Origin: Planctomycetaceae bacterium
GTDB taxonomy: Bacteria; Planctomycetota; Planctomycetia; Pirellulales; UBA1268
Length of the DNA: 47,657 nucleotides
Direction of reading: 5' to 3'
NCBI GenBank assembly: GCA_046086245.1
Contig: JBJSXB010000129.1
Location: forward strand, 1-47,657
In this document: positions 2,867-21,448 of the stretch, piece after piece
Position numbering within the stretch: position 1 is the stretch's first letter
How the letters are laid out: each line of letters starts with the position of its first letter
Notes under the pieces: generated by a model
What the model saw: only the letters and a program-made list of their open reading frames with translations
What the model was told of the DNA's origin: nothing
The model's database searches: none
Program-made: the position numbers and the translations under genes

Positions 2867-2976
2867 CGCTCGCCGGTCCACGGCAGATTCACGCCGCGGG
2901 CCGCGAGCACCGTTTCAGCAGCTGACTTTCGTTTCACTTTCCCAGCCCGCGTCGTGATCGTTCCGGAGGCCTTTGC

Positions 2977-4818
2977 ATGAGCACCGTCCACTCCCCGAGC
3001 ACGGGCACCGCCGTCAGTCCGGCGGATCACGGTCACGCCGTCGCGGTCGGTGGCCGGGCGCCGCGCTCGTCCCGGCAGGTCGCGGAGTTCCTCTCGACCT
3101 ACGTGTTCTCCAAGGACCACAAGGTCATCGGGCTGCAATTCCTGTTCTCGACGCTGCTGTGGTTCCTCATCGGCGGGCTGCTGGCCCTCGCGGTCCGCTG
3201 GCAGATCGCCTGGCCGTGGTCGCAGGTCCCGGTGCTCGGCAAATTGTTCGCGCAGGAGGGCGGCCAGATGGCGCCCGAGTTCTACACGATGCTGTTCACC
3301 ATGCATGCCACGGTGATGATCTTCCTGGTGATCATCCCGATCCTCGCGGGGGCGTTCGGCAACTTTCTCATCCCGCTGATGATCGGTGCGGACGACATGG
3401 CGTTTCCCACGCTCAACATGTTGTCGTACTGGTTCATGTGGCCGGCGTTCTTCTGCTTCGGCGCCAGTTTCTTCGTCGAGGGGGGGCCGGCGTCGGGCGG
3501 TTGGACGAGCTACCCGCCGCTGTCGACCAACGTCGCCGCCAGTCCCGGCAGCGGTATGGGGCAGACGCTGTGGCTGTTGGGCCTGACCTTCGTCGGCGTG
3601 TCGAGCATGCTCGGCAGTGTCAACTACATGACGACGATCATCCTGATGCGCGCACCCGGCATGACGATGTTCCGCCTGCCGATGACGATCTGGGCGATGT
3701 TCATCACCGCGGTCCTGCAGGCCTTCGCCCTGCCGGTGTTGACCGCCGCCGGTTTCATGCAGCTCTCCGACAGGATGTTGGGTACCGGGTTTTTCAATCC
3801 CGAGGGCAACGTCGTCAACAACCTCCTGACGAGCACCGGCGGTGGCCACCCGATCCTCTGGCAGCACCTGTTTTGGTTCTACAGCCATCCGGCGGTCTAC
3901 ATCATGATCCTGCCGGCGATGGGGATGGTCAGCGATATCCTCACCGTGTTCGCCCGCAAACCGCTGTTCGGGTACCGGCCGATGGTCTACTCGGTGGCCG
4001 GGATCGCCGGCCTCGGGTTCATCGTCTGGGGGCACCACATGTTCGTGTCCGGGATGAACCCGGCGCTCGGCATCACGTTCATGGTGTCGACGATGATGAT
4101 CGCGCTGCCCAGCGCCGTGAAAACCTTCAACTGGCTCGGGACGCTGTGGGGCGGACGGATTCAGTTCACGACGGCGATGCTCTTCGCGGTGTCGTTCGTG
4201 TCGATGTTCATCATCGGCGGTCTGTCGGGCATCTTCATGGCGGCGACGCCGGTCGACATCTTCATCCACGACACCTACTTCATCGTCGCCCACTTCCACT
4301 ACGTGTTGTTCGCGGGCACGGCGATGGGAGTCTGGGCGGCCATCTATTACTGGTTTCCGAAGATGTTCGGCCGGATGATGAACGAGTTCTGGGGCAAGGT
4401 GCATTTCTTCCTCACCTTTTTGTTCCTCAACGGCACGTTCTTCACGATGCACATCCTCGGAGCGGTGGGGTTTCCACGTCGACTCGCCGACGCCTACCAC
4501 TACGAGACGTTCCACCACCTGCAGCCGCTCAACGCGTTCATGACGTGGTGTGCGATCGGCATGGTGGCCACGCAGATCATCTTCGCCGCCAACTTCGTGT
4601 GGAGCATGTTCTACGGACCGGTCGCCGGCCGGAATCCCTGGAATGCCAACACCCTCGAGTGGACCGCGCCGAGTCCCCCGGGGCATGGCAACTTCGACTA
4701 CCAACCTGTCGTCCATCGCGGCCCCTACGAGTATTCCGTGCCGGGGGCTGCCAAGGATCATCTCATGCAGACTGATCCTCCCGACGCGCACGCCGCGGCG
4801 CTCGCGGCCGCCCACTGA
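2977..4818 (+). CDS. coxA: Cytochrome c oxidase subunit I (heme-copper oxidase, A2 type)
   Basis: DHKVIG, TMHA, DMAFP, GWTSYPPL, WFYSHPAVY, WGHHM and AHFHYV motifs; GGAGG RBS. Confidence 0.97.
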   Translation: MSTVHSPSTGTAVSPADHGHAVAVGGRAPRSSRQVAEFLSTYVFSKDHKVIGLQFLFSTLLWFLIGGLLALAVRWQIAWPWSQVPVLGKLFAQEGGQMAPEFYTMLFTMHATVMIFLVIIPILAGAFGNFLIPLMIGADDMAFPTLNMLSYWFMWPAFFCFGASFFVEGGPASGGWTSYPPLSTNVAASPGSGMGQTLWLLGLTFVGVSSMLGSVNYMTTIILMRAPGMTMFRLPMTIWAMFITAVLQAFALPVLTAAGFMQLSDRMLGTGFFNPEGNVVNNLLTSTGGGHPILWQHLFWFYSHPAVYIMILPAMGMVSDILTVFARKPLFGYRPMVYSVAGIAGLGFIVWGHHMFVSGMNPALGITFMVSTMMIALPSAVKTFNWLGTLWGGRIQFTTAMLFAVSFVSMFIIGGLSGIFMAATPVDIFIHDTYFIVAHFHYVLFAGTAMGVWAAIYYWFPKMFGRMMNEFWGKVHFFLTFLFLNGTFFTMHILGAVGFPRRLADAYHYETFHHLQPLNAFMTWCAIGMVATQIIFAANFVWSMFYGPVAGRNPWNANTLEWTAPSPPGHGNFDYQPVVHRGPYEYSVPGAAKDHLMQTDPPDAHAAALAAAH

Positions 4819-4876
4819 CATCCCGGCGAACGCCGCCCGGTGCGGCGTCCTCCCCGGCGAGCGACCTCCACAGCGC

Positions 4877-5893
4877 ATGCCCGAACAATCATCACCGCCG
4901 TTCCTCGCGCTCGTCGTCTCCTCGCTTCTGGTGGCGATGACGGCGGTCCTGCTTTGCTTCGGGGCGTTGGTGACGACGTACGATGCGGCGATGGCGGTCC
5001 CCGACTGGCCTGCCACCTACGGCCACAACATGTTTCTCTTCCCGCTCGCCGAGTGGCTCGGCGGGCCTTGGGATCTGTTTCTGGAGCACGGGCATCGGTT
5101 GCTGGGCGCCGCGGTGGGGCTGCTGACACTGATCCTCGCCGGCCTCGTGTGGACGACGGCGAGCACCCCGCAGGTGCGCGGGTTGGCGGTCGCGGCGACG
5201 TTGTTGGTGGTGGTACAGGGGTTACTCGGCGGGATGCGCGTGCTGCTCGACGACAAAACGATCGCCAAGGTGCACGCCTGCACGGGCCCGCTGTTTTTCG
5301 CCGTGGCCACCGCCATCATGACGCTGCTGGTCCGGCAGCGGCCGTCACGGCAGCGACCGTTCGAAGAGCGTCTGTACGAGCAGGTGCCGGTTCGACCGAC
5401 CTGGTCGAGCGGCGGTTTCGTGCCGCCGGCACTCGTGGTCGCTTCGTACCTCCAACTCGTCGCCGGCGCCCAGTTGCGGCATCTCGACGCCGCGCTCACG
5501 CCGGGTGATTTCCGTTGGCTGGTCGCGATCCATCTGCTCGGTGCCGCCGCCGTCACGCTGTTCGCGTTCCTGGCAGTCGTCTCCTGGCAGCCTCACGATC
5601 CTCCGTGGGCGCGACGTTGGGCGCGGTTGATCGCGGGCGTGGTCATCGGCCAACTGCTGCTCGGATGCGGCGCATGGTTGGTCAACTACGGCGTTCCCGC
5701 GGGGTGGCTGCAGGATGCCTGGACCCCCTCCACGCCGCTGGTCGCGAGGAGCGTGCGCGGGGCCCTGGTGGTGACCGGCCACACGGTGCTGGGCATGCTC
5801 ATCCTCGGGTCGTCGGTGGTGCTGATGCTCGTCTGGGGCGGCGGTCCGACCCTGGCGCGGTCCGCACGGCGCTGGCGGGAGGCCTCCGCATGA
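4877..5893 (+). CDS. ctaA: Heme A synthase (COX15/CtaA family)
   Basis: PDWP, EHGHR, QGLLGG-x-RV and further His-bearing helices (KVHA, AIHL, TGHT); about 8 TM segments; located in the cox operon. Confidence 0.88.
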   Translation: MPEQSSPPFLALVVSSLLVAMTAVLLCFGALVTTYDAAMAVPDWPATYGHNMFLFPLAEWLGGPWDLFLEHGHRLLGAAVGLLTLILAGLVWTTASTPQVRGLAVAATLLVVVQGLLGGMRVLLDDKTIAKVHACTGPLFFAVATAIMTLLVRQRPSRQRPFEERLYEQVPVRPTWSSGGFVPPALVVASYLQLVAGAQLRHLDAALTPGDFRWLVAIHLLGAAAVTLFAFLAVVSWQPHDPPWARRWARLIAGVVIGQLLLGCGAWLVNYGVPAGWLQDAWTPSTPLVARSVRGALVVTGHTVLGMLILGSSVVLMLVWGGGPTLARSARRWREASA

Positions 5894-6891
5894 GCGCGAC
5901 TCGCAAGCACACGCGCCCGTCGGTGGCGGCGATCACGCTGCCGGCTCACGTCGATCCGACCGACGTCACCGGCCTGTCGGCGGTCGATCCGATCTCCCCC
6001 GTGCGCGCCGCCCTCGCAGACGTCGGCCTGCTTGTGCGGCCGCGAATCACGGTGATGGTGCTGGCCACCGTGGTCACCGCCGCCTGGCTCACGGCGGGGC
6101 GGTCGATCGATCCGGTCCCGCTGCTCGCGTTGCTCGTGGGGACGGCACTCGTCGCCGCGAGTTCCAGCGTCGCCAACCAAATCCTCGAACGGCACTCCGA
6201 TCGACTCATGCCGCGCACGGCGGGCCGGCCGCTCGCCGCGGGTCGGATCGACCCCGGCGTCGCCTGGTGGATGGCCGCCGGCTTGGGCCTCGGGGGTTTC
6301 GTCCTCGCCGCGGCCGGAGGAGGGGTGCTCGCCGCGGCGACAGCCGCCGTGACGTGGCTGCTGTACGTCGCGGTCTACACGCCACTCAAACGTCGCTCGC
6401 CGCTCAATACCGCCGTAGGCGCGGTACCGGGTGCGTTGCCGGTGGCGATCGGCTGGTTCGCGGCCGACGGTCCGGCCCGGTTCGCCGCCGGTGACGCCGC
6501 CGGCACGATCGCGACGGGAGCCCTGGGAGCTGTCCTCTATCTCTGGCAGTTCCCGCATTTCATGGCAATCGCCTGGCTCTACCGGCGTCATTACGAGCAT
6601 GCCGGCATGCGGATGCTCACGGTGACCGATCCCACCGGTGCGCGGGCCGGCATCCATGCCGTGGTTGCGGCGCTGGCGATGGTGCCAGCGAGCCTGTTGC
6701 TCGCCGTTCCCTCGGCCCGGTGGCCGCTGTTCATCGTCTCGGCGACACTGGCGTCGATCTACCTCGCGGCGGCGATCCGTTTCGCGGCCCGTCGCGACGA
6801 CCGGTCAGCCCGCGCGCTGTTGCTGGTCTCGCTCGCCGTGCTCCTCGGTCTTCTCGTGGCCGCGCTGGGAGGCGGCCCGCCGCCCAGCTGA
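5890..6891 (+). CDS. ctaB: Protoheme IX farnesyltransferase (heme O synthase)
   Basis: [15 protein letters not shown]-x-x-[17 protein letters not shown] and WQFPHF motifs; ATGA overlap with ctaA. Confidence 0.93.
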
Positions 6892-6955
6892 GCCGATCCT
6901 TGTCCTTGTTTCGATCTTCGCCGACGCTTCGACCCGATACCGACTGGATCACGCC

Positions 6956-8002
6956 ATGACCGCTCCAGCGATCAGCCTGCCGCACGGTGGCGGCCACGAC
7001 GACCACGCCCACGATGGCCACGTGCACCTCCAGTACCAGCCCGGTTTGCCGCTGTCGCGGGGCAAACTGATCATGTGGCTGTTTTTGTCGACGGAGATCA
7101 TGTTCTTCGCCGCCCTGCTGGGCAGCTACGTGGTACTCCGCTTCGGTGCGCCGTCGTGGCCGCTGCCGCACCACGTCCACCTCAGCGAGCCGATCGGCGC
7201 CTTCAACACCTTCGTGCTCATCTGCTCCAGCGTGACGATCGTGCTGGCGCTGGAGGCGGCCCGCGCCGACAAGGCGGTGCAGGCGAAGACGTGGATGCTG
7301 CTCACACTGCTGCTGGGCTCGTTGTTTCTCGGGGTGAAGGGATACGAGTACGCCGCGAAATTCTCCCACGGGATCTACCCCGCCCGGCCCCACGGCCAGA
7401 TCTACGAGCGGCCTGACCTCTACTACGGCTCGGCCGTTCGGGCCCGGCTGGATGAACTGCGGAAAGTGCCCGTCGGTCGCGTTCCCGCCCTGCTTCGCGA
7501 TCCGACCGCCGACGGCGCCGCCAAGCCGGGTGACACCGTCGACGTCCTGAAGCGACTCGATGATCTGCCCGACGCCAAACTTTCGCCCGACCAACAGACC
7601 GCGCGGGCGCGGCTCCGGCAGATCCACACGCTGGTGAAAAGGCCCGACCAGCAGGCGTTCGACATGGCGGTTGTGGCCGACCAGGTAATGCCATTGGCTT
7701 CGGCGGGGAGCGATCACGGTGGCGATCACGGCGGCGGCCACGGCACCCACGGCATCAATGACGCGTTCACGTGGCTCCGCCTCCCCACGGTGATCCCCGG
7801 CGGCAATCTCTGGGCGAGCACCTACTTCCTGCTCACCGGCTTCCACGCCATCCACGTCGCCGTGGGGTTGCTCGTGTTCGGGATCATGCTCACCTGGCGG
7901 CTCGACTCCGCCCGCGCCGGCGCGATCGAGAACGCCGGTTTGTATTGGCACTTCGTCGATCTGGTGTGGATCTTCCTGTTCCCGCTCCTGTACCTGTTTT
8001 GA
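6956..8002 (+). CDS. coxC: Cytochrome c oxidase subunit III with a large soluble insertion
   Basis: [13 protein letters not shown]-x-x-L-x-x-SS, TGFHAIHV and YWHFVDLVW motifs, with a ~140-aa hydrophilic insert between the TM blocks. Confidence 0.93.
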
Positions 8003-8090
8003 CGCGGGCACGAGCCCGTGCGTTCCTCGTCGTCGCGTCCCACGCGACTTCCCCGCGTCGTTCGCCGTCTTCCGTGCATCCGAGGTTCCG

Positions 8091-8633
8091 ATGTCCGACC
8101 ATCACGATCATCCGTCCGATCACGGACCCATCACCCGTGCCGGCGAACTGCCCGCGGCCGGCGACGATTCCCCCGGCACGCCGCACACCCACACCGGCGG
8201 CACGCACGGCCATGCCACCGGCCACCACGACCATGGCGGCATCGGCAAGTACCTGGCGGTGTTCGCCGCGCTGTGCGGACTGACCACGATGTCGTTCTTC
8301 ACCTACTCGTCGCTATGGCCGTGGCGCGACCAACCGCAGGTCGGCTGGGCGTTCATGATGGCGGTATCCTGCACCAAGGCACTGCTTGTGGTGCTGTTCT
8401 TCATGCACGTGCTCTGGGAGGCGAATTGGAAGTACGTGCTCACGATCCCCGCGGCGATGATGGCGATCTTCCTGGCGTTGATGCTCGTGCCGGACGTCGG
8501 GATGCGGACGCGGATGGTGGCCCAGGAGCGTGCGCTGTACATGGCGCGACCCTCCGACGTCCGCTTGATGGAGGAAGCCCGATCGAGCGACCCGTTGTCC
8601 GATCCCGGAGCGGCGAGTCCATCGCCGTTTTGA
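8091..8633 (+). CDS. coxD: Cytochrome c oxidase subunit IV family protein with a His-rich N-terminus
   Basis: YLAVFAALCGLT and KALLVVLFFMH signature, 3 TM segments, directly after coxC. Confidence 0.85.
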   Translation: MSDHHDHPSDHGPITRAGELPAAGDDSPGTPHTHTGGTHGHATGHHDHGGIGKYLAVFAALCGLTTMSFFTYSSLWPWRDQPQVGWAFMMAVSCTKALLVVLFFMHVLWEANWKYVLTIPAAMMAIFLALMLVPDVGMRTRMVAQERALYMARPSDVRLMEEARSSDPLSDPGAASPSPF

Positions 8634-8710
8634 GTCGCCCGCGTCGGGACGACACCCCCGGGCTTTTCGTCGTGACCGCCGAGCCCGACCGACCGCCGCG
8701 GGAGCCACCG

Positions 8711-9418
8711 ATGCCGGCGCCACCTCGTTCGACCGTTTCCCAGGCGCTGGCGCTCGTCGGCGGCAGGCTACGGCGTGACCGCCACGCATCGGTGGGATCG
8801 CCGATGCGGTCCGCCGTCGCCCTCGGCATGCTCGCGCTGGGCGGCGCCGGCTGTGGCGGACACCGTGACGCCGCCGCTCCCGCGTCGCCATCGGCACCGC
8901 CACCGGCACCGGCGGTCGTCGAACCGGGGGACCCTGCCGCCCCGTTCACGCTCACGGATCAAAATGGTGCGACCTTCGATTCCGCGTCGTTGCGCGGACG
9001 TGTCTGGGTCGCCAGCATCTTTTTCTCCAACTGTCCCGGCCCCTGTTTCCGGGAGAATCAGGCGATCGCCGACATCCTCCGGGAGGTCGCCGATCCGGAT
9101 CTCGTCGCGGTCAGCCTGACGTGCGACCCCGACAACGACACCCCCGACGTGCTGCGCCGGTACGCGGAGCGGTTCGACGCCGATCCGTCCCGCTGGAAAT
9201 TCCTCACCGGCGACATGGACACGATCCGAGCGGTCGCCAACAAGACATTGTTCCTGCCGGCGGAAGTGGGTGTCCATTCGGAACGGGGAGTCGTGTTCGA
9301 TCGGCGGGGACGCCTGCGGGGCAGCTACCACCTGCTCCAGCCCGACCGGGTAGCGTTGCTGATGAAACTCGTTCGTGAGGTGCTCGCGGAACCGGCTGAT
9401 GCGGAGGCCATTCCATGA
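8711..9418 (+). CDS. SCO1/SenC-family copper chaperone, lipoprotein-like
   Basis: FTLTDQNG, FFSNCPGPC (CxxxC), DP-x-x-DTP, WKFLTG and distal H-S. The start is uncertain (8711 or 8804). Confidence 0.9.
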   Translation: MPAPPRSTVSQALALVGGRLRRDRHASVGSPMRSAVALGMLALGGAGCGGHRDAAAPASPSAPPPAPAVVEPGDPAAPFTLTDQNGATFDSASLRGRVWVASIFFSNCPGPCFRENQAIADILREVADPDLVAVSLTCDPDNDTPDVLRRYAERFDADPSRWKFLTGDMDTIRAVANKTLFLPAEVGVHSERGVVFDRRGRLRGSYHLLQPDRVALLMKLVREVLAEPADAEAIP

Positions 9419-9918
9419 TCGCCCCGACGCCCCTGGTGGCGATCCACCCGTTGGCGACCACCAACGCCGTCCTCAACTGCCTCGCGACCGTGCTCCTGGT
9501 CGTCGGCTGGGTGGCGATCGCGCGCGGACACTGGCGCCTTCACCGTGCGGCGATGGTGGCGGCATTCGCCGTGTCGACGTTGTTTCTCGCCTGCTACCTG
9601 GCCTACCACTGGCTCGTCGGCCACGTCGCCTTTTCGGGGCAGGGGGGGGTGCGGACCGCGTACCTTGCGATCCTCGCCAGCCACGTCGTCCTCGCCGCCG
9701 TCGTGCCCGTGCTGGCGGTGACGATGCTCGTGCTCGCCGCGCGGGGCCGCTGGAATGCCCATCGTCGCCTCGGGCGGGTGACGCTGCCGATCTGGCTGTA
9801 TGTGTCGGTGACCGGGGTGGTGATCTACCTGATGGTGTACGTGCTCTACCCGTCCCCCGCCGACGGCCGGGTCGCGATCGATCGCCAGACCGGCCGAAAG
9901 GTGGCGGCGATACCGTGA
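9415..9918 (+). CDS. DUF420 / CtaM-like oxidase assembly membrane protein
   Basis: NAVLN, H-R-x-x-M, FLACYL-x-YH, ILASH, HRRLGR and WLYVSVTG motifs; ATGA overlap with the SCO gene. Confidence 0.88.
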   Translation: MIAPTPLVAIHPLATTNAVLNCLATVLLVVGWVAIARGHWRLHRAAMVAAFAVSTLFLACYLAYHWLVGHVAFSGQGGVRTAYLAILASHVVLAAVVPVLAVTMLVLAARGRWNAHRRLGRVTLPIWLYVSVTGVVIYLMVYVLYPSPADGRVAIDRQTGRKVAAIP

Positions 9919-12904: not shown

Positions 12905-13963
<1,059 letters not shown>

Positions 13964-14187
13964 TCGCGCGGGCGGGCCGCCCCGTCTTGCCCGTCCTGCC
14001 CCGTTTGTGGGCCACCGCCGCGTATTGGCATCCCGGCGGGGTTCCGGGGGAGGAGCATCGCCACGCCCTCGTGCGCGCGGCTGTCTGCCGTTGTGGTGCG
14101 TCCCCGGGTTCCGTTAGAACCCGCCGTCCCCGAACCGGCGAGCCCCCCGTCGCGGGAAGGTCTCGCGTCCCGAGGAGGTCCGCGCCG

Positions 14188-14901
14188 ATGGCAGCCCATC
14201 CCCCGAGCGGTGGAACCGACGATCGACTGCCCCTCGAAGCCATGCCGCGTGGCGGACAACGCGTGTCGCGCCCGCGGTCGCCGGTCCGGAGCCACCCGCG
14301 ATTGTTCGTCCCGCAGGGGTACGAGCCCGGATACGCCTATCCACTGCTGGTGTGGCTGCCGGGTACGCGCGGCTTCGACCTCGGTCGTGCGATGAACCGG
14401 GTGAGCACGCGCAACTTCGTCGCGGTCGAGCCGGCGCTGCCGCGTCGCGTGGCGGGACGTGCCGTCCTCGACGACGCCGTGTGGGAAGCGGTGGATACCG
14501 CCGCGGAACGCTGCCACGTGCACCCCGACAGGGTCTTCCTCGTCGGGCGCGGCACCGGCGGCACCGACGCCTTCCGCGTCGCCTTCCGCCACGCCGAACG
14601 GTTCGCGGGGATGGTTTCACTCGGCGGGAGTTTTCCCCATGCCGAGGCGCTGTTCGCGAAACTGGCGGCGGTGCGGCGTCTCCCGGTGCTCTTTTGCTGC
14701 CGCCACGATGCCGCCGACGCCATGGCGGCGACCACCGCGCTGACGCTCCGGTTGTTCCACGCGGCCGGCGCCCAGCTGTCGATGCGGATCTACCGCGAGT
14801 CGCACGACCTGGCGGCGCCGATCCTTCGCGACGTCAATCGCTGGCTGATGGACGAGGTCTGCGGTGGCGTCGCCGCGGACGAACGGATCGGCTCCACCTG
14901 A
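14188..14901 (+). CDS. Alpha/beta-hydrolase-fold protein lacking the catalytic Ser
   Basis: LFVP-x-x-YEP-x-YAYPLLVWL and 'PDRVFLVGRGTGG' at the nucleophile elbow, plus a C-terminal His (ESHDL); GAGGAGG RBS at 14172-14178. Confidence 0.75.
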   Translation: MAAHPPSGGTDDRLPLEAMPRGGQRVSRPRSPVRSHPRLFVPQGYEPGYAYPLLVWLPGTRGFDLGRAMNRVSTRNFVAVEPALPRRVAGRAVLDDAVWEAVDTAAERCHVHPDRVFLVGRGTGGTDAFRVAFRHAERFAGMVSLGGSFPHAEALFAKLAAVRRLPVLFCCRHDAADAMAATTALTLRLFHAAGAQLSMRIYRESHDLAAPILRDVNRWLMDEVCGGVAADERIGST

Positions 14902-14926
14902 ACGCACTCGACCGCCGGAACCCACG

Positions 14927-15397
14927 ATGGACGACAGCCGCACCGCCGACCCCGAGCCGATCATCTTCCCGCTGCGTGGCGGCGACGCCGCGGGCGGACC
15001 GACGTGGGTCCGCGCCCGGAGCATCGTCGATGCCGCGGCCACCGATGCCGCCGTGACGATCGACGTCCCCGACGGCCACGTGCTCCACGTCGATCCCGCG
15101 CTGCTCACCGGTCTCCTTCGCCAGTGGGTCGATCGCGCGTGCCGCGTCACGGCGGCCTCGACCGTCATCGGACGCCGCGAGGTCGTGGTGACCAGCGTCC
15201 TCCTTCCCGATGCCATCGAACTGGAGGTCGCCGACTCTGGCGACGCGCCCGACGCCGCCGACAGCGCCTGGTTCACGCGGCAGGCGGCCGTCGCGGGCCG
15301 GCTGGGAGCGACGCTCGACGTCCGTCCGTGCGCCGAGGGTGGTACCGCCCTCACGCTCCGCTTCGCGCGCCGGCTCACCGAGCGGCGCGCCGCCTGA
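14927..15397 (+). CDS. Degenerate stand-alone HATPase_c-like domain
   Basis: IELEVADSG (G1/D box) and 'GATLDVRPCAEGGTALTLRF' (G3-like) are present; the N-box Asn and G2 box are not recognisable. Confidence 0.55.
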   Translation: MDDSRTADPEPIIFPLRGGDAAGGPTWVRARSIVDAAATDAAVTIDVPDGHVLHVDPALLTGLLRQWVDRACRVTAASTVIGRREVVVTSVLLPDAIELEVADSGDAPDAADSAWFTRQAAVAGRLGATLDVRPCAEGGTALTLRFARRLTERRAA

Positions 15398-15437
15398 CGT
15401 CCTTCTCCGACCGTCGCCACCCGCCCACGGCACCGCC

Positions 15438-16979
15438 ATGGAACATGACGCCTCGCTCACTCCGCCGCGGACGCACATCACGCCGCTCCAGGCGATCGCT
15501 CTGGGGTGCACGGCGGTCGCCATCGCCTGGGGTGCCTGGTCGCTCCGCGACCGTCCGACGAGCGAAGAGGTGGATTTGCTGCCCGGCTCGGTGCTCCCGC
15601 AGTCGGAACTGGCGATCATGGAGGCCGCCTTCGATCGCGCGCAACTCTCGGGCCATCGCACCGACGGCGGCCGGGTGTGGGTGCCACGGGCGCGGCACAG
15701 CGCCTACATGCGGGCACTGGTCGACGCGGAGGCTTTGCCGCGCGAATTCGGCGCCAGCCTGCGCCGCGCGCTGGCCAGCAACGGGCCGTGGACGAGCACT
15801 TCGCTCCGCGCCGACACCCTGCGCGTCGCCATCCAGGACGAACTGGCCCTCGTGCTCTGCTCCATGCCGGGCATCGAACGAGCCGCCGTGCTGTACGATG
15901 ACGCGCCCAAAGCCGGGCTCTCCGGCGGGTTCGAGCGGACCGCCAGCGTCAGCATCCGCACCCAACCCGACACCGAGTTGGAGTCGGGGCGGGTCCAGGC
16001 GATCCGTGTCCTCGTCGCATCGGCGATCGCCGGCTTGCCGGTGGAGCGGGTCGCGGTGACCGACCTGCGCAGCGGCCGCGTGTTCGCCGGTCCGGCCGAG
16101 CCGATCGACGGCGCGGGCGATCCGGCACGGGCCGCCCGGCTCGGTCTCGAGCGTGCCACCGTGGCGAAGATCCGCCAGTCGCTCGCCTTCATCCGCGGCG
16201 TGGTCGTCGATGTCACTCTGTCGGGGGCCGGCGCGGCCACCCCCGCCGAGGCCTCCGTGACGGTGCCGGGGGCCGTGGCCGACCACTCCGCCGACACCCG
16301 TCGTGCAGCCGCCGCGAGCGTGAGCCCGGCCGACGCCAACGCGCCCGCCGCGATCGACGGACGGGCGCATGACAAGGCCGCCGGCGGCGACGATCGCGTC
16401 GTCGGACCGGTGCCGAGCGGAAGTCCCACGGCTCCGGAAGGATCGCTCCAGGTGCTGGTGGCAGTGCCCGACGTCTACTTCGATTCGGTGGTGGCGGCGG
16501 CCCGTGACCGGCGGCTACGGCGCGGCGGCACCGACGCCTGGACCGAAGACGACGCCGATCGCGCGGAGGCGGTCGAGATCGAACGCCTCACCACGTTGGT
16601 GTCGACGATGCTGCCCGACGTCGGTCCCGCGGTTCGACCCCGGATCGTCGTCGCACCCTTCACCAGCGGCCTCGCCACCCCGCGGGCGACGACCGACGCC
16701 GGCGACGCGGCCAGCGCCGCCGCGGCGCTCGCCGCCTGGTGGCGCCACGGCGACCAGGCAGACGCGGTGCGACGCCTCGGACCGATGGTGCTGTGTTGCC
16801 TGTCGGCCGTGGTGCTGGCGGCGGTGCTGTGGCGCAGCGGCGCAGCGCAACGCGATGCGACCGGCCCGACGCTGCACGGTGCGGTAGGCGGTGCCGTGGC
16901 CGGTGACGAACGACGCGCGCCCGCCACCGTGCCACTCCCGTCGGCCGCCGCACCCGAGCGGTGGCGGGAGGCTGCCTGA
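15438..16979 (+). CDS. fliF: Divergent FliF/YscJ-family ring-forming protein
   Basis: N-terminal TM; 'IQDELALVLCSMPGIERAAV', 'TASVSI' and 'VQAIRVLVASAIAGL-x-x-ERVAVTD' match the YscJ/FliF ring-building motif; second TM near the C-terminus. Confidence 0.75.
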   Translation: MEHDASLTPPRTHITPLQAIALGCTAVAIAWGAWSLRDRPTSEEVDLLPGSVLPQSELAIMEAAFDRAQLSGHRTDGGRVWVPRARHSAYMRALVDAEALPREFGASLRRALASNGPWTSTSLRADTLRVAIQDELALVLCSMPGIERAAVLYDDAPKAGLSGGFERTASVSIRTQPDTELESGRVQAIRVLVASAIAGLPVERVAVTDLRSGRVFAGPAEPIDGAGDPARAARLGLERATVAKIRQSLAFIRGVVVDVTLSGAGAATPAEASVTVPGAVADHSADTRRAAAASVSPADANAPAAIDGRAHDKAAGGDDRVVGPVPSGSPTAPEGSLQVLVAVPDVYFDSVVAAARDRRLRRGGTDAWTEDDADRAEAVEIERLTTLVSTMLPDVGPAVRPRIVVAPFTSGLATPRATTDAGDAASAAAALAAWWRHGDQADAVRRLGPMVLCCLSAVVLAAVLWRSGAAQRDATGPTLHGAVGGAVAGDERRAPATVPLPSAAAPERWREAA

Positions 16980-17584
16980 TGTGGCGCACCCGGTCGGTGT
17001 CGCGCGGCCTGCTCACGCTGGCGTTGCTGCTCGTCTGCACCGGCGCCGCGCGGAGTGACGACGACGGACCCGACGAACGGGCCTCCGCGCCGGAGAGGCT
17101 CGCCGCGCCGGCGCACCTCGATCTCGAACCGATGCCACCGCGCGATCAGCCCCCACGGACGGCAAGCGGCTCCCGTGCGACCTCGTGGCCGTGGCAGGTG
17201 GCGGCGTTTCTCGCCACGCTCGCCGCGGCCGTGGCGCTTCTCCGCGGGATCGGACCGCGTCCGGACCGATCGGCGACGTCGGCGACGCTCGCGTTGGAAG
17301 GCACGTTGGCACTGGGTCCGCAGCACGGTCTGCGCCTGGTGCGCTTTGGCCGCCGCATCCTGCTGATCGGGCTCGCCCCCGGTGGTTGTTCGCTGATCGC
17401 CGAGGGGGACGAGTCGCTCGGGGAAGGGATCGCGACGGCCACCCCCGGCGTCGAGCCGACGCGCGGGCCACTCGGTGCGCCGCCGGACGATCCCGACCGG
17501 TCGACGACGCCCGCGGGGATGCCGCGTGCGCCCGCCCCCACCACCGTCGCCGATCATGCTCCTCCGTCGCGCGGTGCCGCATGA
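16979..17584 (+). CDS. fliO: FliO-like protein
   Basis: TM followed by 'LALEGTLALGPQHGLRLVRFGRRILLIG' (FliO cytoplasmic pattern); directly before fliP; TGATG overlap. Confidence 0.7.
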   Translation: MWRTRSVSRGLLTLALLLVCTGAARSDDDGPDERASAPERLAAPAHLDLEPMPPRDQPPRTASGSRATSWPWQVAAFLATLAAAVALLRGIGPRPDRSATSATLALEGTLALGPQHGLRLVRFGRRILLIGLAPGGCSLIAEGDESLGEGIATATPGVEPTRGPLGAPPDDPDRSTTPAGMPRAPAPTTVADHAPPSRGAA

Positions 17585-18405
17585 TCCGGGCCTTACGCCG
17601 CGCCGCGGCCACCGCGCTGATCCTGTTCGTCTCCGCCGGCGCGCCGGCCGTGGCGGATGGGAACGGCGATCCGCCCGACCGCGCGGCCGGGGATGCGGTG
17701 ACGGCGCTGGAGTTGCCCTGGGCCGGGGTGGTGTCGCGTTGGATCGGCGGCCGCTCCCTCGACGCCTCGCTGTCGGCGGCGGTGCTGTTCGGCGTGGCGA
17801 GCCTCGCACCGGCGCTGGTGCTCATGACCACGTCCTTCGTACGGATCTCGATCGTCCTCACCCTCCTGCGGCAGGGTCTCGCCGCGCAACTCCCGTCGAA
17901 CCAGGTGATCGCCAGCCTCGCCCTGTTCTTGTCGGCGCTGGTGATTTGGCCGGTCTGGACCCAGGCCTGGAGCGATGGTGTCGGCCCCTATCAAGCGGGG
18001 CAGATCGACCTTTCCACCGCCGTCGCCCGCGGCAGTTTGCCAGTGCGGCGTTGGATGGCGACCCAGATCGAGGATGCCGGCAATCGTGACACGATGTTGC
18101 TTTTCCTGCAGCGGCATCCCGCACGCCCCGCGGGGATCCGCAGCTACGACGACGTCCCGCTCGAGAGCCTCCTGCCGGCGTTTCTCGTCAGCGAACTCGA
18201 CGTCGCCTTCGGCATCGGCTTCCGGCTCCTGCTTCCCTTCCTGATGATCGACCTGCTGGTCGCCACGCTGATCGTGGCCTCGGGATTGGTGACGGTGTCG
18301 CCGACCGTCGTGGCCCTGCCGCTGAAGCTGATGGTGTTCGTCATGGCCGACGGGTGGACCCTCGTGGTGCGTGCGCTGCTCGACGGGCTCCTTCCGTCCG
18401 GCTGA
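17581..18405 (+). CDS. fliP: Flagellar/T3SS export gate protein FliP (divergent)
   Basis: Signal peptide, TSFVRISIV-x-x-LLRQ, PSNQV, LLPAF-x-x-SEL, PFLMIDL and LPLKL-x-x-FV-x-x-DGW motifs. Confidence 0.92.
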   Translation: MIRALRRAAATALILFVSAGAPAVADGNGDPPDRAAGDAVTALELPWAGVVSRWIGGRSLDASLSAAVLFGVASLAPALVLMTTSFVRISIVLTLLRQGLAAQLPSNQVIASLALFLSALVIWPVWTQAWSDGVGPYQAGQIDLSTAVARGSLPVRRWMATQIEDAGNRDTMLLFLQRHPARPAGIRSYDDVPLESLLPAFLVSELDVAFGIGFRLLLPFLMIDLLVATLIVASGLVTVSPTVVALPLKLMVFVMADGWTLVVRALLDGLLPSG

Positions 18406-18423
18406 CCCGCAGGAGCCGATCCG

Positions 18424-18675
18424 ATGACCGAATGGTGCGACCTCGTGCGCCACGCGCTGTGGACCCTTTTGCTCGTCGCCGCGCCGCTCCTCGCCGCCGG
18501 CGTCGTCGTCGCCGTGGTGGTGGGTATCGCCCAAGCGGCGACCGGTATCCAGGAGCCGTTGCTGGCATTGGCGCCGCGTCTGCTCGCGATGGCGGCGGTG
18601 CTGCTGGTCGGTCTGCCGTGGATGGCGGAGCGCCTGGTCGAACTGTTGGTGCACAGCGTTCTGCCGCCGCCCTGA
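18424..18675 (+). CDS. fliQ: Export gate protein FliQ (divergent)
   Basis: 83-aa hydrophobic protein with QAATGIQE-x-x-L-x-x-x-PR and PWM; directly after fliP. Confidence 0.88.
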   Translation: MTEWCDLVRHALWTLLLVAAPLLAAGVVVAVVVGIAQAATGIQEPLLALAPRLLAMAAVLLVGLPWMAERLVELLVHSVLPPP

Positions 18676-18700
18676 CGACGTCTCCCCCACGGCCCCGGTC

Positions 18701-19507
18701 GTGACGATGCCCTCGTCGCTCCCCCCTCTCGACGCCGTGATCGTCGCCTGCCTGGCGGGCGGGGCGGCGGTGCGCGTGGCGACCGCGGGGGCCGCCGCGG
18801 TGCGTGGTGCGCTGCCCGACCTGCCGTCCCAGGCACTGACGGGCATCGTGGTCGGATTGCTCGTCGCCGTGGCGCCCACGGTCATCGGCCGCCCGTGGCC
18901 CGAGGGGAGCGCCTTCGCGGGGTGGGGGAGTGTACCGGCAGTCCTGCTCGGCGAGGCGTTGTGCGGGTGGATCCTCGGCACGGTCGCCGCCGCCGCTTGC
19001 GGCATCGGCGGCTGGGGCGGGACGATCCTCGCCGGCACTTCGGGGCTGGCGCTGGAAGGCGACGTTCCCGCCGGCGATCCGCAGGGCGGAAGCCTGGCGC
19101 GGCTCGGGTGGTGGATCGGTGCGATGGCGTTCCTCGCCGCCGGCGGGGCACGGTTTCTCGTCGTCGCCTTGATCGCGAGCTTCGACCGCATCCCCGTCGG
19201 CGCGCTGGGGGGCGTCGGCGTGCCACCCGACCTCGCCGCGACCGTCGGCACGTTGCCGGCGCTCATCCTGGAGATGGCGGTCGGCTTGGCGGTGCCGGCC
19301 CTGGTCGCCGTCGTCGCCGCGAACCTGGCGGTCGCGATCGGCCTCCGCGTTCTGGGAATCGCTTCCCCGGCCGGAATCATCCCCACGCTGACGGCGCTGG
19401 TGGTGCTGGCGACCCTGGTGGTTATGGCCCCGGCCTGGGGCGATCGCGCCGCCGTGGCGGCCTGGTCGATCCTCGACCAGGCGGGCACCCTCGTGCCGCA
19501 CCGCTGA
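18701..19507 (+). CDS. fliR: Export gate protein FliR (highly divergent)
   Basis: Multi-TM protein between fliQ and flhB, with 'LGEALCG-x-x-LG', 'FLAAGG-x-x-x-L-x-x-AL-x-x-SF-x-x-IP' and 'LAVP' patterns. Confidence 0.7.
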   Translation: MTMPSSLPPLDAVIVACLAGGAAVRVATAGAAAVRGALPDLPSQALTGIVVGLLVAVAPTVIGRPWPEGSAFAGWGSVPAVLLGEALCGWILGTVAAAACGIGGWGGTILAGTSGLALEGDVPAGDPQGGSLARLGWWIGAMAFLAAGGARFLVVALIASFDRIPVGALGGVGVPPDLAATVGTLPALILEMAVGLAVPALVAVVAANLAVAIGLRVLGIASPAGIIPTLTALVVLATLVVMAPAWGDRAAVAAWSILDQAGTLVPHR

Positions 19508-19526
19508 ACACCGTCGCGAGACCACG

Positions 19527-20267
19527 ATGGCAGACGGCACGTCCGATCGCACGATTCCCCCGACACCGCGACGCCGTGAAGCGGCCTGGCAGTCCGGCAC
19601 GATGCCGGGCGCGGCGGCGCCTGCCTGGGCGACCGGTTGCCTGGTCGGCGGCCTGCTGCTGCCACGCTGGTTGGAGGCGACCGCCGCGTCCGCCGCCAGC
19701 CTGCTCGAACGGACGCTGCCGGGGGCGGTGCGCGGCGACGATCCGCTTGCGTCGCTGCCGGCCATCGCCGCGCTGGTGTGGCCCACGGTGGCGCTGGGCG
19801 CCGCCGCCTTGGCCACGTCGGTGGCGGTGCGGGTCGCGTGTGACGGCCTTCGTTGGTCCGCCGCGCGGACCGCGTTCGACCTCCGCCGACTCGATCCCTT
19901 CGCCGGGATCGCGCGGATCGTCGCCGGCGCCACGATCGTCCGCATCCTCGGCGGCGCGCTGGGGGTGTTGGTGATCGGGGCAACGACGCTGTGGGCGTGC
20001 GCCGACCTCCTCACCACCCTCGCCGGCGATGCGGGCCGCTCCACCGCCGCGAGTGTCGCGGCCGGGGGGAGGATGCTCCTGCCGGTCGCGACCGTCACCT
20101 GGCTGGTCGCCGTGACGGGCTGGGGTTGGGTCCGCCGCCGCGCCGAACGCCGCCTGTGGATGACGCCGGAGGAGTTCGCCGCCGAGCGGCGCGCGGCGGA
20201 AAAGGACCCGCGGATCCGCTTCGAGCCCCGCCAACCGTCTCCTGCTCAGACGGCGGGAGGACGGTAA
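19527..20267 (+). CDS. flhB: FlhB membrane domain only (C-terminally truncated, no NPTH)
   Basis: N-terminal RTIPPTPRRREAA, central 'DLRRLDPF-x-G-x-x-RI' and linker 'LWMTPEEF...EKDPRIR', then a stop. Confidence 0.8.
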   Translation: MADGTSDRTIPPTPRRREAAWQSGTMPGAAAPAWATGCLVGGLLLPRWLEATAASAASLLERTLPGAVRGDDPLASLPAIAALVWPTVALGAAALATSVAVRVACDGLRWSAARTAFDLRRLDPFAGIARIVAGATIVRILGGALGVLVIGATTLWACADLLTTLAGDAGRSTAASVAAGGRMLLPVATVTWLVAVTGWGWVRRRAERRLWMTPEEFAAERRAAEKDPRIRFEPRQPSPAQTAGGR

Positions 20268-21448
20268 CCGTACCGTTCGATGAATCCGCGCCACCGGCGG
20301 CTCACCTCGGTGACGATCCGCGGGTCGTGCCGGTAGGTATTGGTGCGGTATCCGCTGGTCGTGGCGAGCTGCGCCTCGAGCCGGGGGCGGAGCGAGGAAA
20401 AACCCTCGAGCCCGAGCGCCGCATACGCCCTCCCGAGCGTGCCGACCGGATCCGCCACCAAGTCCTCGTAGCGCACCTCGTGGAGAACGCCGCTCGGCAG
20501 CCGCGTCCGGTCGCGTTCGAAGGCGGTGTACATCTCGTCGAAGGCGTTGAACACGTACTCCTCGAGGGTGGTCTCAGGGTCGATCTGCAATCCCTGCGTG
20601 TGGTGCATCGATCGCCAGAGCCGCGTCGTCGATGGGAACACGACGTACGGGTCGCGGACGATGTGGAGGAATCGCGCCCCGGGAAACATCGCCGCCAACA
20701 CCGCCATTCGCGCGGTGTGCGGCGGGCTTTTGAGGATCGGTCGGCGCGGATCGCGCACCGCCAGGGCGGCGAGGAACGAACGCATCGCCCGCTCCCACCG
20801 CCCGCGGTCGGCCGGTGACAACGCCTCGATGTCGAGCGCCTGGGGCCGGGGCGGGCTCGTCGCCGGAAACGCCATGCGCCGGTAGGGGGACGGGGCGCCG
20901 AGATTGGCGAGGGCGAATTCGTCCTCTTGGGGCCGGTCGGGCCCGGCGGTGACGTCGTCCATCGGACGCTTCGCCGGGGTCAGCACGGCGACCAGCGGCG
21001 TGAGGAACCACTCGGTGACGAGGAAGTGGGACGGCGTCATGCACTGCAGCGTGGTCGGACAGCAGAAGCGCTCGTCGAGCATCAGCATCTCGTGCAGCAA
21101 CGTCGTACCGCTGCGCCAGTGTCCGATGATGAACAGCGGCGGCGGCGTGACGGGCGGCTGTTCGAGTCGCCGACCGTTGACCAGCGTGTTGACGGCGGCG
21201 GCGACGGAGTTGAACAGGGTGACGATACTGATCGTCGTGAACAGGCCGAGGCGGCTCGGGGCGACACGGCAGCGATGCTCGGCGACGAGCCCGCTCCAGA
21301 CCGACAGCGTCATGCCGTGCCAGAAGCGCGGCGTCCACACGGGATAGGGATGAAACGGCTTGTCGGCGGAGCGGTTCCCGTCCGGCCGCCCCGGTCCGCC
21401 CGCCTCGCCCGGTCCACCGCCGCTCATGCCTGTATCCTCTTCCACCAT
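20246..21448 (-). CDS. PAPS-dependent sulfotransferase family protein
   Basis: PLFIIGHWRSGTTLLH (5'-PSB loop), LKSPPH, RDPY-x-x-x-x-S (3'-PB) and RYEDLV motifs. The start may be 21427. Confidence 0.9.
   Translation of the reverse strand: MVEEDTGMSGGGPGEAGGPGRPDGNRSADKPFHPYPVWTPRFWHGMTLSVWSGLVAEHRCRVAPSRLGLFTTISIVTLFNSVAAAVNTLVNGRRLEQPPVTPPPLFIIGHWRSGTTLLHEMLMLDERFCCPTTLQCMTPSHFLVTEWFLTPLVAVLTPAKRPMDDVTAGPDRPQEDEFALANLGAPSPYRRMAFPATSPPRPQALDIEALSPADRGRWERAMRSFLAALAVRDPRRPILKSPPHTARMAVLAAMFPGARFLHIVRDPYVVFPSTTRLWRSMHHTQGLQIDPETTLEEYVFNAFDEMYTAFERDRTRLPSGVLHEVRYEDLVADPVGTLGRAYAALGLEGFSSLRPRLEAQLATTSGYRTNTYRHDPRIVTEVSRRWRGFIERYGYRPPAV

Follow-up and report, generated by a model that had tools for sequence, protein, structure and literature searches.

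What would a bacterium that builds no flagellum do with the membrane gate through which flagellar proteins are exported? The question is raised by a six-gene cassette, fliF-fliO-fliP-fliQ-fliR-flhB, at positions 15438-20267 of a contig of 47,657 nucleotides (JBJSXB010000129.1 of assembly GCA_046086245.1, our contig C129; the whole of this stretch is referred to below as the window). The contig belongs to a metagenome-assembled genome (MAG) of a freshwater member of the Pirellulales, which measures 3.9 Mb in 368 contigs, is 94% complete and 3.3% contaminated, and has a G+C content of about 72%. DNA related to this MAG occurs in 20 sequencing runs from 11 studies, which cover fresh water, reservoirs, aquaculture and other sources; no RNA run was listed. 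An initial annotation, made from the letters of the window, had read the cassette as a remodelled export gate possibly selected for a non-motility secretion or conduit function. Comparison with the rest of the genome, with its family and with its order suggests that a family of non-swimming freshwater planctomycetes lost the flagellum and kept the gate together with its regulators for a second job. The cassette is conserved, constrained and not decaying, as had been supposed, while the retained regulators point as much to a secretion-coupled circuit as to the bare conduit that had been envisaged.

The cassette

The six open reading frames (ORFs) are intact, tightly packed and on one strand, as first described, and all of them match Pfam families. 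They are fliF (15438..16979, plus strand), which encodes an MS-ring protein of 513 amino acids (YscJ_FliF, 50.3 bits against a cut-off of 24.4); fliO (16961..17584, plus strand; 207 amino acids; FliO, 26.7 bits against 22); fliP (17581..18405, plus strand; 274 amino acids), which encodes the gate pore subunit (FliP, 191.8 bits); fliQ (18424..18675, plus strand; 83 amino acids; Bac_export_3, 74.3 bits); fliR (18701..19507, plus strand; 268 amino acids; Bac_export_1, 48.7 bits), these last three above their cut-offs; and the membrane domain of flhB (19527..20267, plus strand; 246 amino acids; Bac_export_2, 72.6 bits over positions 2-234 of 335). The overlaps reported between fliF and fliO and between fliO and fliP measure 19 and 4 bases, and the remaining intergenic gaps are 18-25 bases. 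Start codons place the beginning of fliF at 15438 and that of fliP at 17581, where it overlaps the fliO stop as ATGA.

All six proteins score under the NCBI equivalog cut-offs, FliO for example reaching 33.5 bits with the NCBIfam FliO model against a cut-off of 55.25. The top NCBIfam models are flagellar for FliP, FliQ, FlhB, FlhA and FliF, all below the equivalog cut-offs, and FliR is a near tie; FliP scores 195 bits with the fliP model and 135.7 with SctR. It aligns to solved FliP chains and is the only FliP in the genome. The flagellar descent of the cassette is further backed by synteny with a fla/che-like operon in relatives.

Flagellar genes that were not found

Genes that usually lie between fliF and fliO had been noted as absent, and a relative (G028) which carries fliG-fliH-fliI-fliJ-fliN at this very place bears this out. 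Rod, hook, flagellin, FliG, FliI and mot genes were not found in the rest of the genome either; flhA was present, contrary to the idea of a bare cassette. The profiles Flg_bb_rod, Flg_bbr_C, Flagellin_N, Flagellin_C, FliG_C and FliS had no match in the genome, the two flagellin domains not even at an expect value (E) of up to 1. The best match to a FliI-type ATPase reached 214.5 bits against a cut-off of 379.5 and fell at the F1 ATPase locus. A FliMN_C match on contig C43 (20.7 bits, under the cut-off) was judged to be due to chance; it lies inside an ORF with a metallo-beta-lactamase domain, opposite a DUF1571 gene. As an independent check, all ORFs of at least 70 amino acids from eight flagellar loci of four relatives were compared with the whole genome by tblastn. 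The flagellar-related matches were FliF, FliP, FlhA, a sigma factor, FliW and CsrA only, and the outgroup ORFs for FlgE, FlbD, MotA, MotB, FliL and FliN had no match in this genome.

The family was sampled through 61 genomes of 12 genera, 46 of them of high quality, and the order through 151 Pirellulales genomes, ten of which belong to the window's family (the window genome and nine others). Since sampled genomes are often incomplete, negative results mean 'not found in those searched'. Neither the rod domain nor FliI (E up to 1e-80) was found in any of the 61 family genomes. An injectisome is likewise not indicated, as no FliI/YscN-family ATPase was found in the genome or in the 61 family genomes, in a search that left needle and secretin outside its range, and the ring protein is FliF-like and not SctJ-like by Foldseek.

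Across the order, FliP was found in 148 of 151 genomes and in all ten of the family. Flagellin_N (98/151), the rod domain (100/151) and FliG_C (131/151) are widespread in the order and were found in none of the ten. FliP occurs with no match to the rod domain in 51 of the 151 genomes, of which ten are the window's family; the others comprise f26, f28, most of f17, f8 and f4, and parts of f6, f22, f24 and f25. The rod-less families beyond the window's mostly keep FliG (6/6 genomes in f28, 8/9 in f17, 9/10 in f8), and FliH, FliI, FliJ and FliN are kept in the two rod-less outgroup loci that were read. Flagellum-less export systems may be common in the Pirellulales.

Two side observations concern these genomes. 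Families with rod-less genomes are also without flagellin in the order-level searches (for example G017, G025, G026 and G028). In flagellated genomes of the order FliG-like genes come in twos, one matching strongly (about 135-157 bits) and lying away from fliP, the other matching weakly (about 60-85 bits) and lying inside the fliF-to-flhB operon, for instance at G122:C1:3316057 versus 3735662 and at G065:C1:5576589 versus 5667070; rod-less genomes have the weak gene only.

Partner genes on other contigs

The initial annotation held that the parts needed to build the pore were kept and nothing else. This is contradicted by FlhA, a FliA/WhiG sigma factor, FlgM, FliW and CsrA, all encoded elsewhere in the genome. 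As had been observed, no flhA follows the cassette within the window; the gene lies on contig C253, and its product matches FHIPEP with 593.5 bits over profile positions 2-655 of 657, that is, over its full length and including the whole cytoplasmic cargo-docking domain. Its neighbour encodes the FliA/WhiG sigma factor (TIGR02479, 266.9 bits against a cut-off of 189.6), beside which lies a gene for FlgM (Pfam 26.7 bits against a cut-off of 25; NCBIfam 28.3 bits, under the cut-off of 40.75).

The gene order flhA-sigma-flgM-fur was seen in all six family genomes examined, with FlgM beside the sigma gene and 56-62% identical across the six. The sigma factor is 74-91% identical within the family and adjoins flhA in 11 of 12 shorter loci, the twelfth being cut. 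FlhA is present, free of internal stops, in 58 of the 61 family genomes and in 45 of the 46 high-quality ones. In one relative (G116) fliP and flhA share a contig, and therefore both loci come from one organism.

A profile built from seven family sequences detects FlgM-like proteins in 144 of the 151 order genomes, in all 119 of high quality, in 10/10 of the family and in every rod-less family. A sigma-28-like promoter was recognised by eye before flgM in seven of seven family genomes. It consists of an A-tract, a TnAAG-like -35 box (TGGAG in the window genome), 15-16 bases and a GnCGAT-type -10 box, and it resembles the TAAAG-N15-GTCGATA found before flagellin genes of flagellated relatives, where inspection by eye of 20 upstream regions showed that sequence exactly in seven and nearly in two.

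The second regulatory pair lies on contig C329, where fliW (5245-5700, minus strand; Pfam 103.8 bits) adjoins csrA (4901-5200, minus strand; Pfam 88.9 bits). FliW was found in 58/61 family genomes (45/46 of the high-quality ones) at 90-109 bits, and the fliW-csrA pair is kept in all six loci examined. A gene for 297 amino acids beside fliW was considered as a cargo candidate and rejected, being present in three of six related loci only, at 28-35% identity.

Deletions and changes in the gate proteins

FlhB ends directly after the linker motif MTPEEF...P-R-I-R, and its autocleaving (NPTH-type) C-terminal switch domain is absent; the sulfotransferase gene downstream marks the truncated 3' end. 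The protein is 237-269 amino acids long in 33 of 33 related ORFs, of which 13 were aligned with four outgroups, and two flagellated outgroups have VVVTNPTE and the full C-terminal domain. Neither a second FlhB nor a free-standing FlhB C-terminal domain was found in the window genome. The loop motif DPxxG-x-x-R-I/V-F/L-S (here D-P-x-A-G-x-A-R-I) is kept, as in the outgroups. A homologue search with the truncated FlhB gave 17 matches, all of them close relatives of 182-269 amino acids, and is uninformative for other phyla.

An AlphaFold2 model of FliF (predicted local distance difference test, pLDDT, 74.5; predicted template modelling score, pTM, 0.39; alignment of 33 rows) shows TM1, RBM1, RBM2 and an RBM3 that is split by the disordered residues 265-331, followed by TM2. 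The disordered residues take the place of the beta-collar of Salmonella FliF. Foldseek searches with this model place FliF chains on top (9a67_A, E 1.5e-17; Salmonella MS rings), and rings of the SctJ type match more weakly, with coverage of RBM1-2 only. When 12 family sequences were aligned with two outgroups, the first 210 or so residues proved very conserved and the middle variable and Ala/Pro-rich, the periplasmic RBM1 and RBM2 being the most conserved parts. The C-terminal helix of the two outgroups (...AAANILRTWIG), which we take to be the FliG-binding helix, is missing from the 12 family sequences. These losses match the partners that have been lost, the FliF tail going with FliG and the FlhB C-terminal domain with rod and hook.

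Two further changes affect the pore and FlhA. The FliP gate loop reads G-L-V-T-V in the window copy; among 13 aligned sequences of the 44 from the family it is G-L-V-M in nine and G-L-V/I-T in four, the window among these four, and it is G-M-x-M in four of four outgroups. This is the loop known as the methionine-rich gate loop. FliP, FliR and FliF each contain strongly conserved motifs of the family's own. In FlhA the position of Salmonella Asp-208 is Glu and that of Lys-203 is Arg in all 16 matched family sequences (16 of 19 loci fitted the search pattern and three did not), and two outgroups have the canonical Lys and Asp. As a side observation, this change from Lys/Asp to Arg/Glu is fixed family-wide, in a loop at about 20900-21000 of C253 (loci L058-L069 and L095-L100). 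According to passages of PMC3139655, D208E is the sole substitution at Asp-208 of Salmonella FlhA that preserves export, at a slower rate.

Descent of the cassette

A scan based on FliP, with one genome per species, gave 46 loci. FliP is 63-79% identical in 45 of them, 44 of these being labelled as planctomycetes (Pirellulales, Planctomycetia and so on) and one as 'bacterium'; the 46th is an Acidobacteriaceae contig with a FliP of 37% identity. Eight records with this locus (L009, L016, L023, L024, L036, L037, L039 and L047) carry the label 'Candidatus Kuenenia', which looks like a mislabel. FliF, FliP, FliQ, FliR and FlhB are colinear on one strand in all 30 loci that hold all five, by tblastn with the window proteins, and where a locus is missing a gene, the contig is mostly short and breaks off there. 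An arrangement repeated 30 times out of 30 means that the cassette is not a product of chance. In 34 of 34 loci the stretch between fliF and fliP holds an open frame that matches a FliO profile built from six family sequences. The surroundings are equally stable: the malate dehydrogenase gene (mdh), an esterase-like gene, a short upstream ORF and fliF are colinear in 28/28 loci holding all four, and the sulfotransferase gene is convergent with flhB in 28/28 loci holding both, the gap between the match ends being under 140 bases in 25 of the 28.

Three outgroups indicate where the cassette came from. Flagellated G019 has flgE-flbD-motA-motB-fliL-fliN-...-fliP-fliQ-fliR-flhB, with an FlhB of 360 amino acids, a convergent sulfotransferase gene and flhA-flhF, an order that we take to be that of the Bacillus fla/che operon. 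Rod-less G028 has, at the syntenic place, mdh, the esterase gene and a HATPase_c gene followed by fliF-fliG-fliH-fliI-fliJ-fliN-(fliO)-fliP-fliQ-fliR-flhB; its FlhB (L073 11917-12975) is full length at 352 amino acids, with the NPT-type cleavage motif replaced by D-A-E-G. Rod-less G017 keeps ORFs of the size of fliG, fliH, fliI and fliJ as well as fliO, and its FlhB (L074 11983-12843) has 286 amino acids, matching profile positions 1-245 of 335 and ending in an unrelated tail; flhB is followed there by sulfotransferase, thioredoxin, flhA and sigma genes. The two FlhB proteins are degraded differently, and once rod and hook are lost the switch of FlhB seems to go as well. Reduction has gone farthest in the window's family, where fliF abuts fliO because about 5 kb from fliG to fliN are gone. 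The cassette is the remnant of a fla/che-like operon after loss of fliG-fliN, of the FlhB C-terminal domain and of the FliG-binding tail of FliF.

Conservation and selection

The absence of frameshifts, noted for the window, extends to its relatives. Frames are open in 43 of 44 FliP (256-281 amino acids), 34 of 35 FliF (463-541 amino acids), 34 of 34 FliO and 33 of 33 FlhB, and the related ORFs include 43 FliQ of 81-84 and 31 FliR of 259-275 amino acids. In-frame stops in the FliP of L045 (at about 4355) and the FliF of L014 (at about 3821) could be sequencing errors or rare real disruptions.

Ratios of nonsynonymous to synonymous substitution (dN/dS) were calculated pairwise by the method of Nei and Gojobori and are given as medians over pairs with dS of 0.05-1.5. 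Dropped from this calculation were L045 for FliP, L014 for FliF, a mis-extended FliO in L009, ORFs truncated at the edge of a contig, matches that spanned under half of the query and sequences under 70% of the median length. The medians for the cassette are 0.35 for FliP (n=43), 0.39 for FliQ (n=43), 0.44 for FliF (n=34), 0.47 for FliR (n=31), 0.49 for FlhB (n=33) and 0.51 for FliO (n=6). For genes around it they are 0.15 for mdh (n=26), 0.30 for the sulfotransferase (n=29), 0.41 for the esterase-like gene (n=36), 0.61 for thioredoxin (n=23) and 0.62 for the upstream ORF (n=31). The highest value of any pair among the six genes is 0.95, and none is at 1. Third-position G+C is 85-90%, so dS is probably underestimated and these ratios are upper estimates. 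The cassette clearly evolves under constraint, faster than a housekeeping gene and like its ordinary neighbours. Given conserved open frames and ratios well below 1 across dozens of species, the locus does not have the character of random decay, in agreement with what was first proposed.

A possible function and its difficulties

FlgM is exported through the flagellar gate in Salmonella and Bacillus, which frees the sigma factor; the export signal of Salmonella FlgM is at its N-terminus, and sigma-28 acts as its chaperone in export. For subunits of rod and hook the docking site is the FlhB C-terminal domain, and late substrates are brought by chaperones to the cytoplasmic domain of FlhA. The N-terminus of the family's FlgM contains invariant residues. 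From the gene content, the deletions, the conservation of what remains, the parts not found and the regulators retained, each of them observed directly, we infer that the gate is assembled and active in export, with FlgM as a cargo and a regulatory outcome. That the cassette is a selected and assembled remnant of an export gate is a conclusion in which we have high confidence. What is kept amounts to the proton-driven engine of export, its channel and the surrounding ring; what is gone includes the accessories for energising and sorting, all that the gate once built, and the domains in contact with these.

The mechanism that we favour is as follows. The FliF ring would house FliP, FliQ, FliR and the FlhB membrane domain, FliO would serve in assembly, and the gate presumably works with the full-length FlhA encoded on the other contig. 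Having no ATPase, C ring, rod or hook, it would be driven by proton-motive force alone and would open into the periplasm. Because the FlhB domain on which rod and hook subunits dock has been lost, we propose that it handles only 'late-type' cargo presented to FlhA; a missing FlhB C-terminal domain, a complete FlhA and sigma-28 and FlgM genes beside flhA are what would be expected if only late-type traffic survives. FlgM, the one recognisable cargo, would be exported and the FliA/WhiG sigma factor thereby freed. If so, the gate would be a secretion-coupled gene switch, which may also export other proteins. The full statement, of a selected, proton-driven minimal gate with FlgM as one identifiable substrate that controls sigma-28, is tentative, and we would give it slightly less than an even chance of being right in all its parts.

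Several observations weigh against this proposal. The genome is 94% complete and broken into 368 contigs. FliW and CsrA are retained although flagellin, the known partner of FliW, was not found, which hints at a partner or cargo that a model built on FlgM alone does not name. TAAAG-N15-GTCGATA has no exact match in the genome. A relaxed version of the family motif matches 20 times, against 2-4 times in shuffled sequences, with 16 of the matches inside genes and an A-tract at flgM only, and no sigma-28 regulon beyond flgM could be defined from motif scans of the genome. FlgM is present in essentially all genomes of the order, as is sigma-28 in the loci examined, so that their co-occurrence with the gate does not discriminate. 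The dN/dS values of the six genes are two to three times the 0.15 of mdh; these raised values and the scores below the equivalog cut-offs imply that constraint has been relaxed or has shifted. In model organisms, moreover, FliE/rod proteins and the FlhB C-terminal domain take part in export.

Other promoter scans of the genome added little. The canonical sigma-28 promoter TAAA-N14-17-(G)CCGATA had no match; TAAAG-N15-GTCGATA with one mismatch allowed per box matched 41 times, against 9-31 times in five shuffles, which is uninformative; and two intergenic candidates for the relaxed motif, before a HIT-domain gene and before a cut ORF of unknown function, had no link to the system.

A bolder version of the proposal sees a natural seven-protein exporter (FliF, FliO, FliP, FliQ, FliR, the membrane half of FlhB, and FlhA) that works with no ATPase, C ring, switch domain or axial structure and opens straight into the periplasm, in which removal of FlgM, and perhaps of a cargo that binds FliW, would set sigma-28 and CsrA. 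Such a device might sense membrane energy, or pole or daughter identity in budding cells. The rod-less genomes elsewhere in the order, which retain FliG, FliH, FliI, FliJ, FliN and a longer FlhB, may then make up with the window's family a surviving series of intermediate states that resembles the one postulated between flagellum and injectisome. As a whole this is speculative and, in our estimate, unlikely.

Alternative explanations

The strongest alternative is that the gate is a general secretion or conduit machine for other cargo, such as proteins or nanotube-like bridges, and that FlgM and sigma-28 are incidental to it; we regard this as possible, if rather doubtful. Retention of FliW and CsrA with no flagellin favours it, as the 58 of 61 family genomes that have FliW could encode a flagellin-like cargo that has escaped recognition, and the 51 of 151 order genomes with FliP and no rod match suggest a non-motility use. 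FliO/P/Q/R-FlhB-FlhA is also the CORE set of PMC6456723, passages of which note genomes with CORE genes and no other organelle parts, and passages of PMC7688988 describe a non-flagellated Lysobacter, OH11, that exports non-flagellar proteins through a leftover flagellar system. On the other hand, no candidate cargo emerged in the genome, where the flagellin domains had no match at E up to 1 and no FliS-type chaperone was found, and there is no outer-membrane or axial component to take cargo beyond the periplasm. FliF is dispensable for Bacillus nanotubes according to passages of PMC6456723, yet it is among the best conserved parts here.

We consider it improbable that the complex of FliF, FlhA and FliPQR is kept as a structure or landmark with no part in export. 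It would then be a scaffold in the membrane or at the pole, such as one that marks the new pole when cells bud, or a 'hat-like' body of the inner membrane. This view is in keeping with the alteration of the FliP methionine gate and with the fact that the periplasmic RBM1 and RBM2 are the most conserved parts of FliF, and PMC9380563 describes a widespread inner-membrane structure akin to the flagellar export system whose function is not known. Features tied to export nevertheless persist, namely an acidic residue (Glu) at the Asp-208 position of FlhA, its whole cargo-docking domain, the FlhB loop motif, and FlgM, the classical exported regulator.

That the cassette is a decaying relic, functionless and not yet erased, is very unlikely. 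Its FliP scores are low: in the order scan the window reaches 194 bits with the Pfam profile and the nine other family genomes 202-219, against mostly 226-286 elsewhere in the order, with two full-length outliers at 204 and 211. The scores of all six proteins below the equivalog cut-offs and the in-frame stops in one FliP and one FliF point the same way. Against it stand open frames that keep a uniform length in 31-44 species whose proteins are 33-79% identical, the absence of any pair at a dN/dS of 1, a gene order identical in 30/30 loci, and an uninterrupted FlhA in 45 of 46 high-quality genomes. The genomes are also small (2-5.3 Mb assembled, 69-98% complete) and cleanly rid of every other flagellar gene searched, that is, rod, hook, flagellin, FliG, FliI, FliS, stator, FliL and FliN.

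An ordinary flagellum, whose remaining genes were missed through divergence or through gaps in a MAG of 94% completeness and 368 contigs, is extremely unlikely. The profiles by which rods were detected in 100 of 151 genomes, flagellin in 98 of them and FliG in 131 detect none in the ten of the family, and rod domain and FliI are missing from all 61 family genomes searched. The loss of fliG-fliN is directly visible inside the operon, and deletion has also taken the FliF tail that binds FliG and the switch domain of FlhB. Passages of Andrei et al. 2019 (PMC6461901) report the flagellar apparatus missing from most freshwater Planctomycetacia MAGs.

Neighbouring genes

Directly before fliF lies an ORF of 177 amino acids (14864..15397, plus strand), separated from it by 40 bases. 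It is a degenerate relative of a HATPase_c (histidine-kinase-like) protein; the window copy has no Pfam or NCBIfam match, a counterpart was recovered by tblastn in 37 of 45 related loci, and that of outgroup G028 has 279 amino acids and matches HATPase_c with 71.5 bits. It is possibly co-transcribed with fliF. Before it, on the same strand as fliF, is the esterase-like gene (13786-14901), which has a weak Pfam match only. Both genes hold their place before fliF even in rod-less G028, and they may belong to the gate operon. A scan of window positions 13800-20500 with promoter and terminator consensus sequences gave no promoter and one terminator-like site, against 1.6 expected.

Other neighbours are unrelated to the gate. 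Upstream lie the mdh gene and a cytochrome c oxidase cluster (2926-9918) with COX1, CtaA, a UbiA-type heme O synthase, COX3, COX4_pro and DUF420. The convergent sulfotransferase gene (20246..21448, minus strand; Sulfotransfer_3, 120.2 bits) overlaps the flhB stop and is no part of the machine, and farther downstream are thioredoxin, TPR proteins and ABC/HlyD-type genes. Elsewhere in the genome, near-identical strings of 27 bases, GAAAGCACGTCACCGAT[G/A]CTGTCGAAA, occur on contigs C165 (7380-7406) and C271 (403-429) and may mark a repeat or duplicated region.

Comparison with known systems

Retention of export genes in non-flagellated bacteria is already known from Buchnera, Lysobacter OH11, CORE-only genomes and partial loci. 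Buchnera is said to keep flagellar basal bodies, with rod, hook, rings, C ring and ATPase retained, and Chlamydia reportedly has sigma-28 and homologues of FlhA, FliI and FliF, re-uses its sigma-28 for development and has a full injectisome besides. Both resemble the present family in being non-motile with export-system parts kept, and neither is known to have the seven-protein minimal set seen here. Minamino and Namba are said to have found in 2008 that the Salmonella gate without FliH and FliI exports by proton-motive force, work to which PMC3139655 refers. What was a mutant there, a gate of FlhA, FlhB and FliPQR with no ATPase, is the natural state here; unlike the present system, it was a laboratory strain with C ring, full-length FlhB and an axial structure, and its export was weak without suppressors.

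Buchnera is also mentioned in PMC7688988, passages of which describe Lysobacter OH11. Like the present family OH11 has no flagellin and keeps the gate, which is reported there to be expressed, exporting and repurposed. It retains hook, rod, L and P rings, FliN, FlgD and FliI according to the same passages, whereas here no hook, rod, FliN or FliI was found and the FlhB C-terminal domain is absent, in a search that did not cover L- and P-ring genes and FlgD by name.

The CORE of Bacillus subtilis (FliO, FliP, FliQ, FliR, FlhB and FlhA), described in passages of PMC6456723 as the proposed platform of nanotubes, is the same gene set, with flhB truncated here and flhA on another contig. The idea that an export gate can outlive its organelle is common to both, and the likeness is one of gene content. 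FliF differs, being kept and strongly conserved here and dispensable for nanotubes in those passages, as does FlhB, which here has no C-terminal domain; sigma-28, FlgM, FliW and CsrA are co-retained here. The 'CORE-only' genomes named there are Myxococci, Chloracidobacterium thermophilum and Succinatimonas; planctomycetes are not named in the main text, from which the supplementary lists may differ.

The 'Myxo' non-flagellar type III system of Abby and Rocha 2012 (PMC3459982) is likewise, in passages of that paper, a flagellum-derived core without motility parts, and 61 replicons with partial core sets, nearly all flagellar in origin, are counted in it. Compared with the systems in those passages, the present one has no ATPase, FliG/FliN or FlhB C-terminal domain, and its flagellar descent is supported by fla/che-like synteny. 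Planctomycetes appear in the main text of that paper only as flagellated, and its supplementary tables may differ. FliO is treated in non-flagellar contexts in bioRxiv 10.1101/2025.05.06.652439, the relevant passages of which do not mention planctomycetes, and the passages of Andrei et al. 2019 (PMC6461901) on flagella, motility and Pirellulales mention no retained gate. In the literature outside subscription journals, supplements aside, we found no paper on a flagellar export gate retained in non-flagellated planctomycetes. What is new is the degree of reduction, with no ATPase, C ring, FlhB switch domain or axial part, together with its family-wide fixation, the co-retention of two flagellar regulatory pairs, and a graded series of rod-less states within one order.

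Significance

How small a set of proteins can still carry out type III export is a long-standing question that has so far been approached through laboratory mutants only. Nature seems to have carried out such an experiment in this family: rod, hook, filament, C ring and the ATPase complex have gone, as have the switch domain of FlhB and the tail of FliF, yet dozens of species retain the seven membrane proteins intact. An active gate would amount to a minimal exporter open to reconstruction and study, would show whether the FlhB C-terminal domain and a rod cap are needed for gate opening, and would illustrate concretely how a motility organelle can shrink to a device for regulation or secretion. 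Since 51 of 151 Pirellulales genomes have FliP and no rod match, non-motility use of the export system is suggested to be common in planctomycetes, and for some of the rod-less lineages the genomes, such as G026, G055 and G120, are closed or nearly so, in one to seven contigs. These lineages may be in culture, and the question would then be testable.

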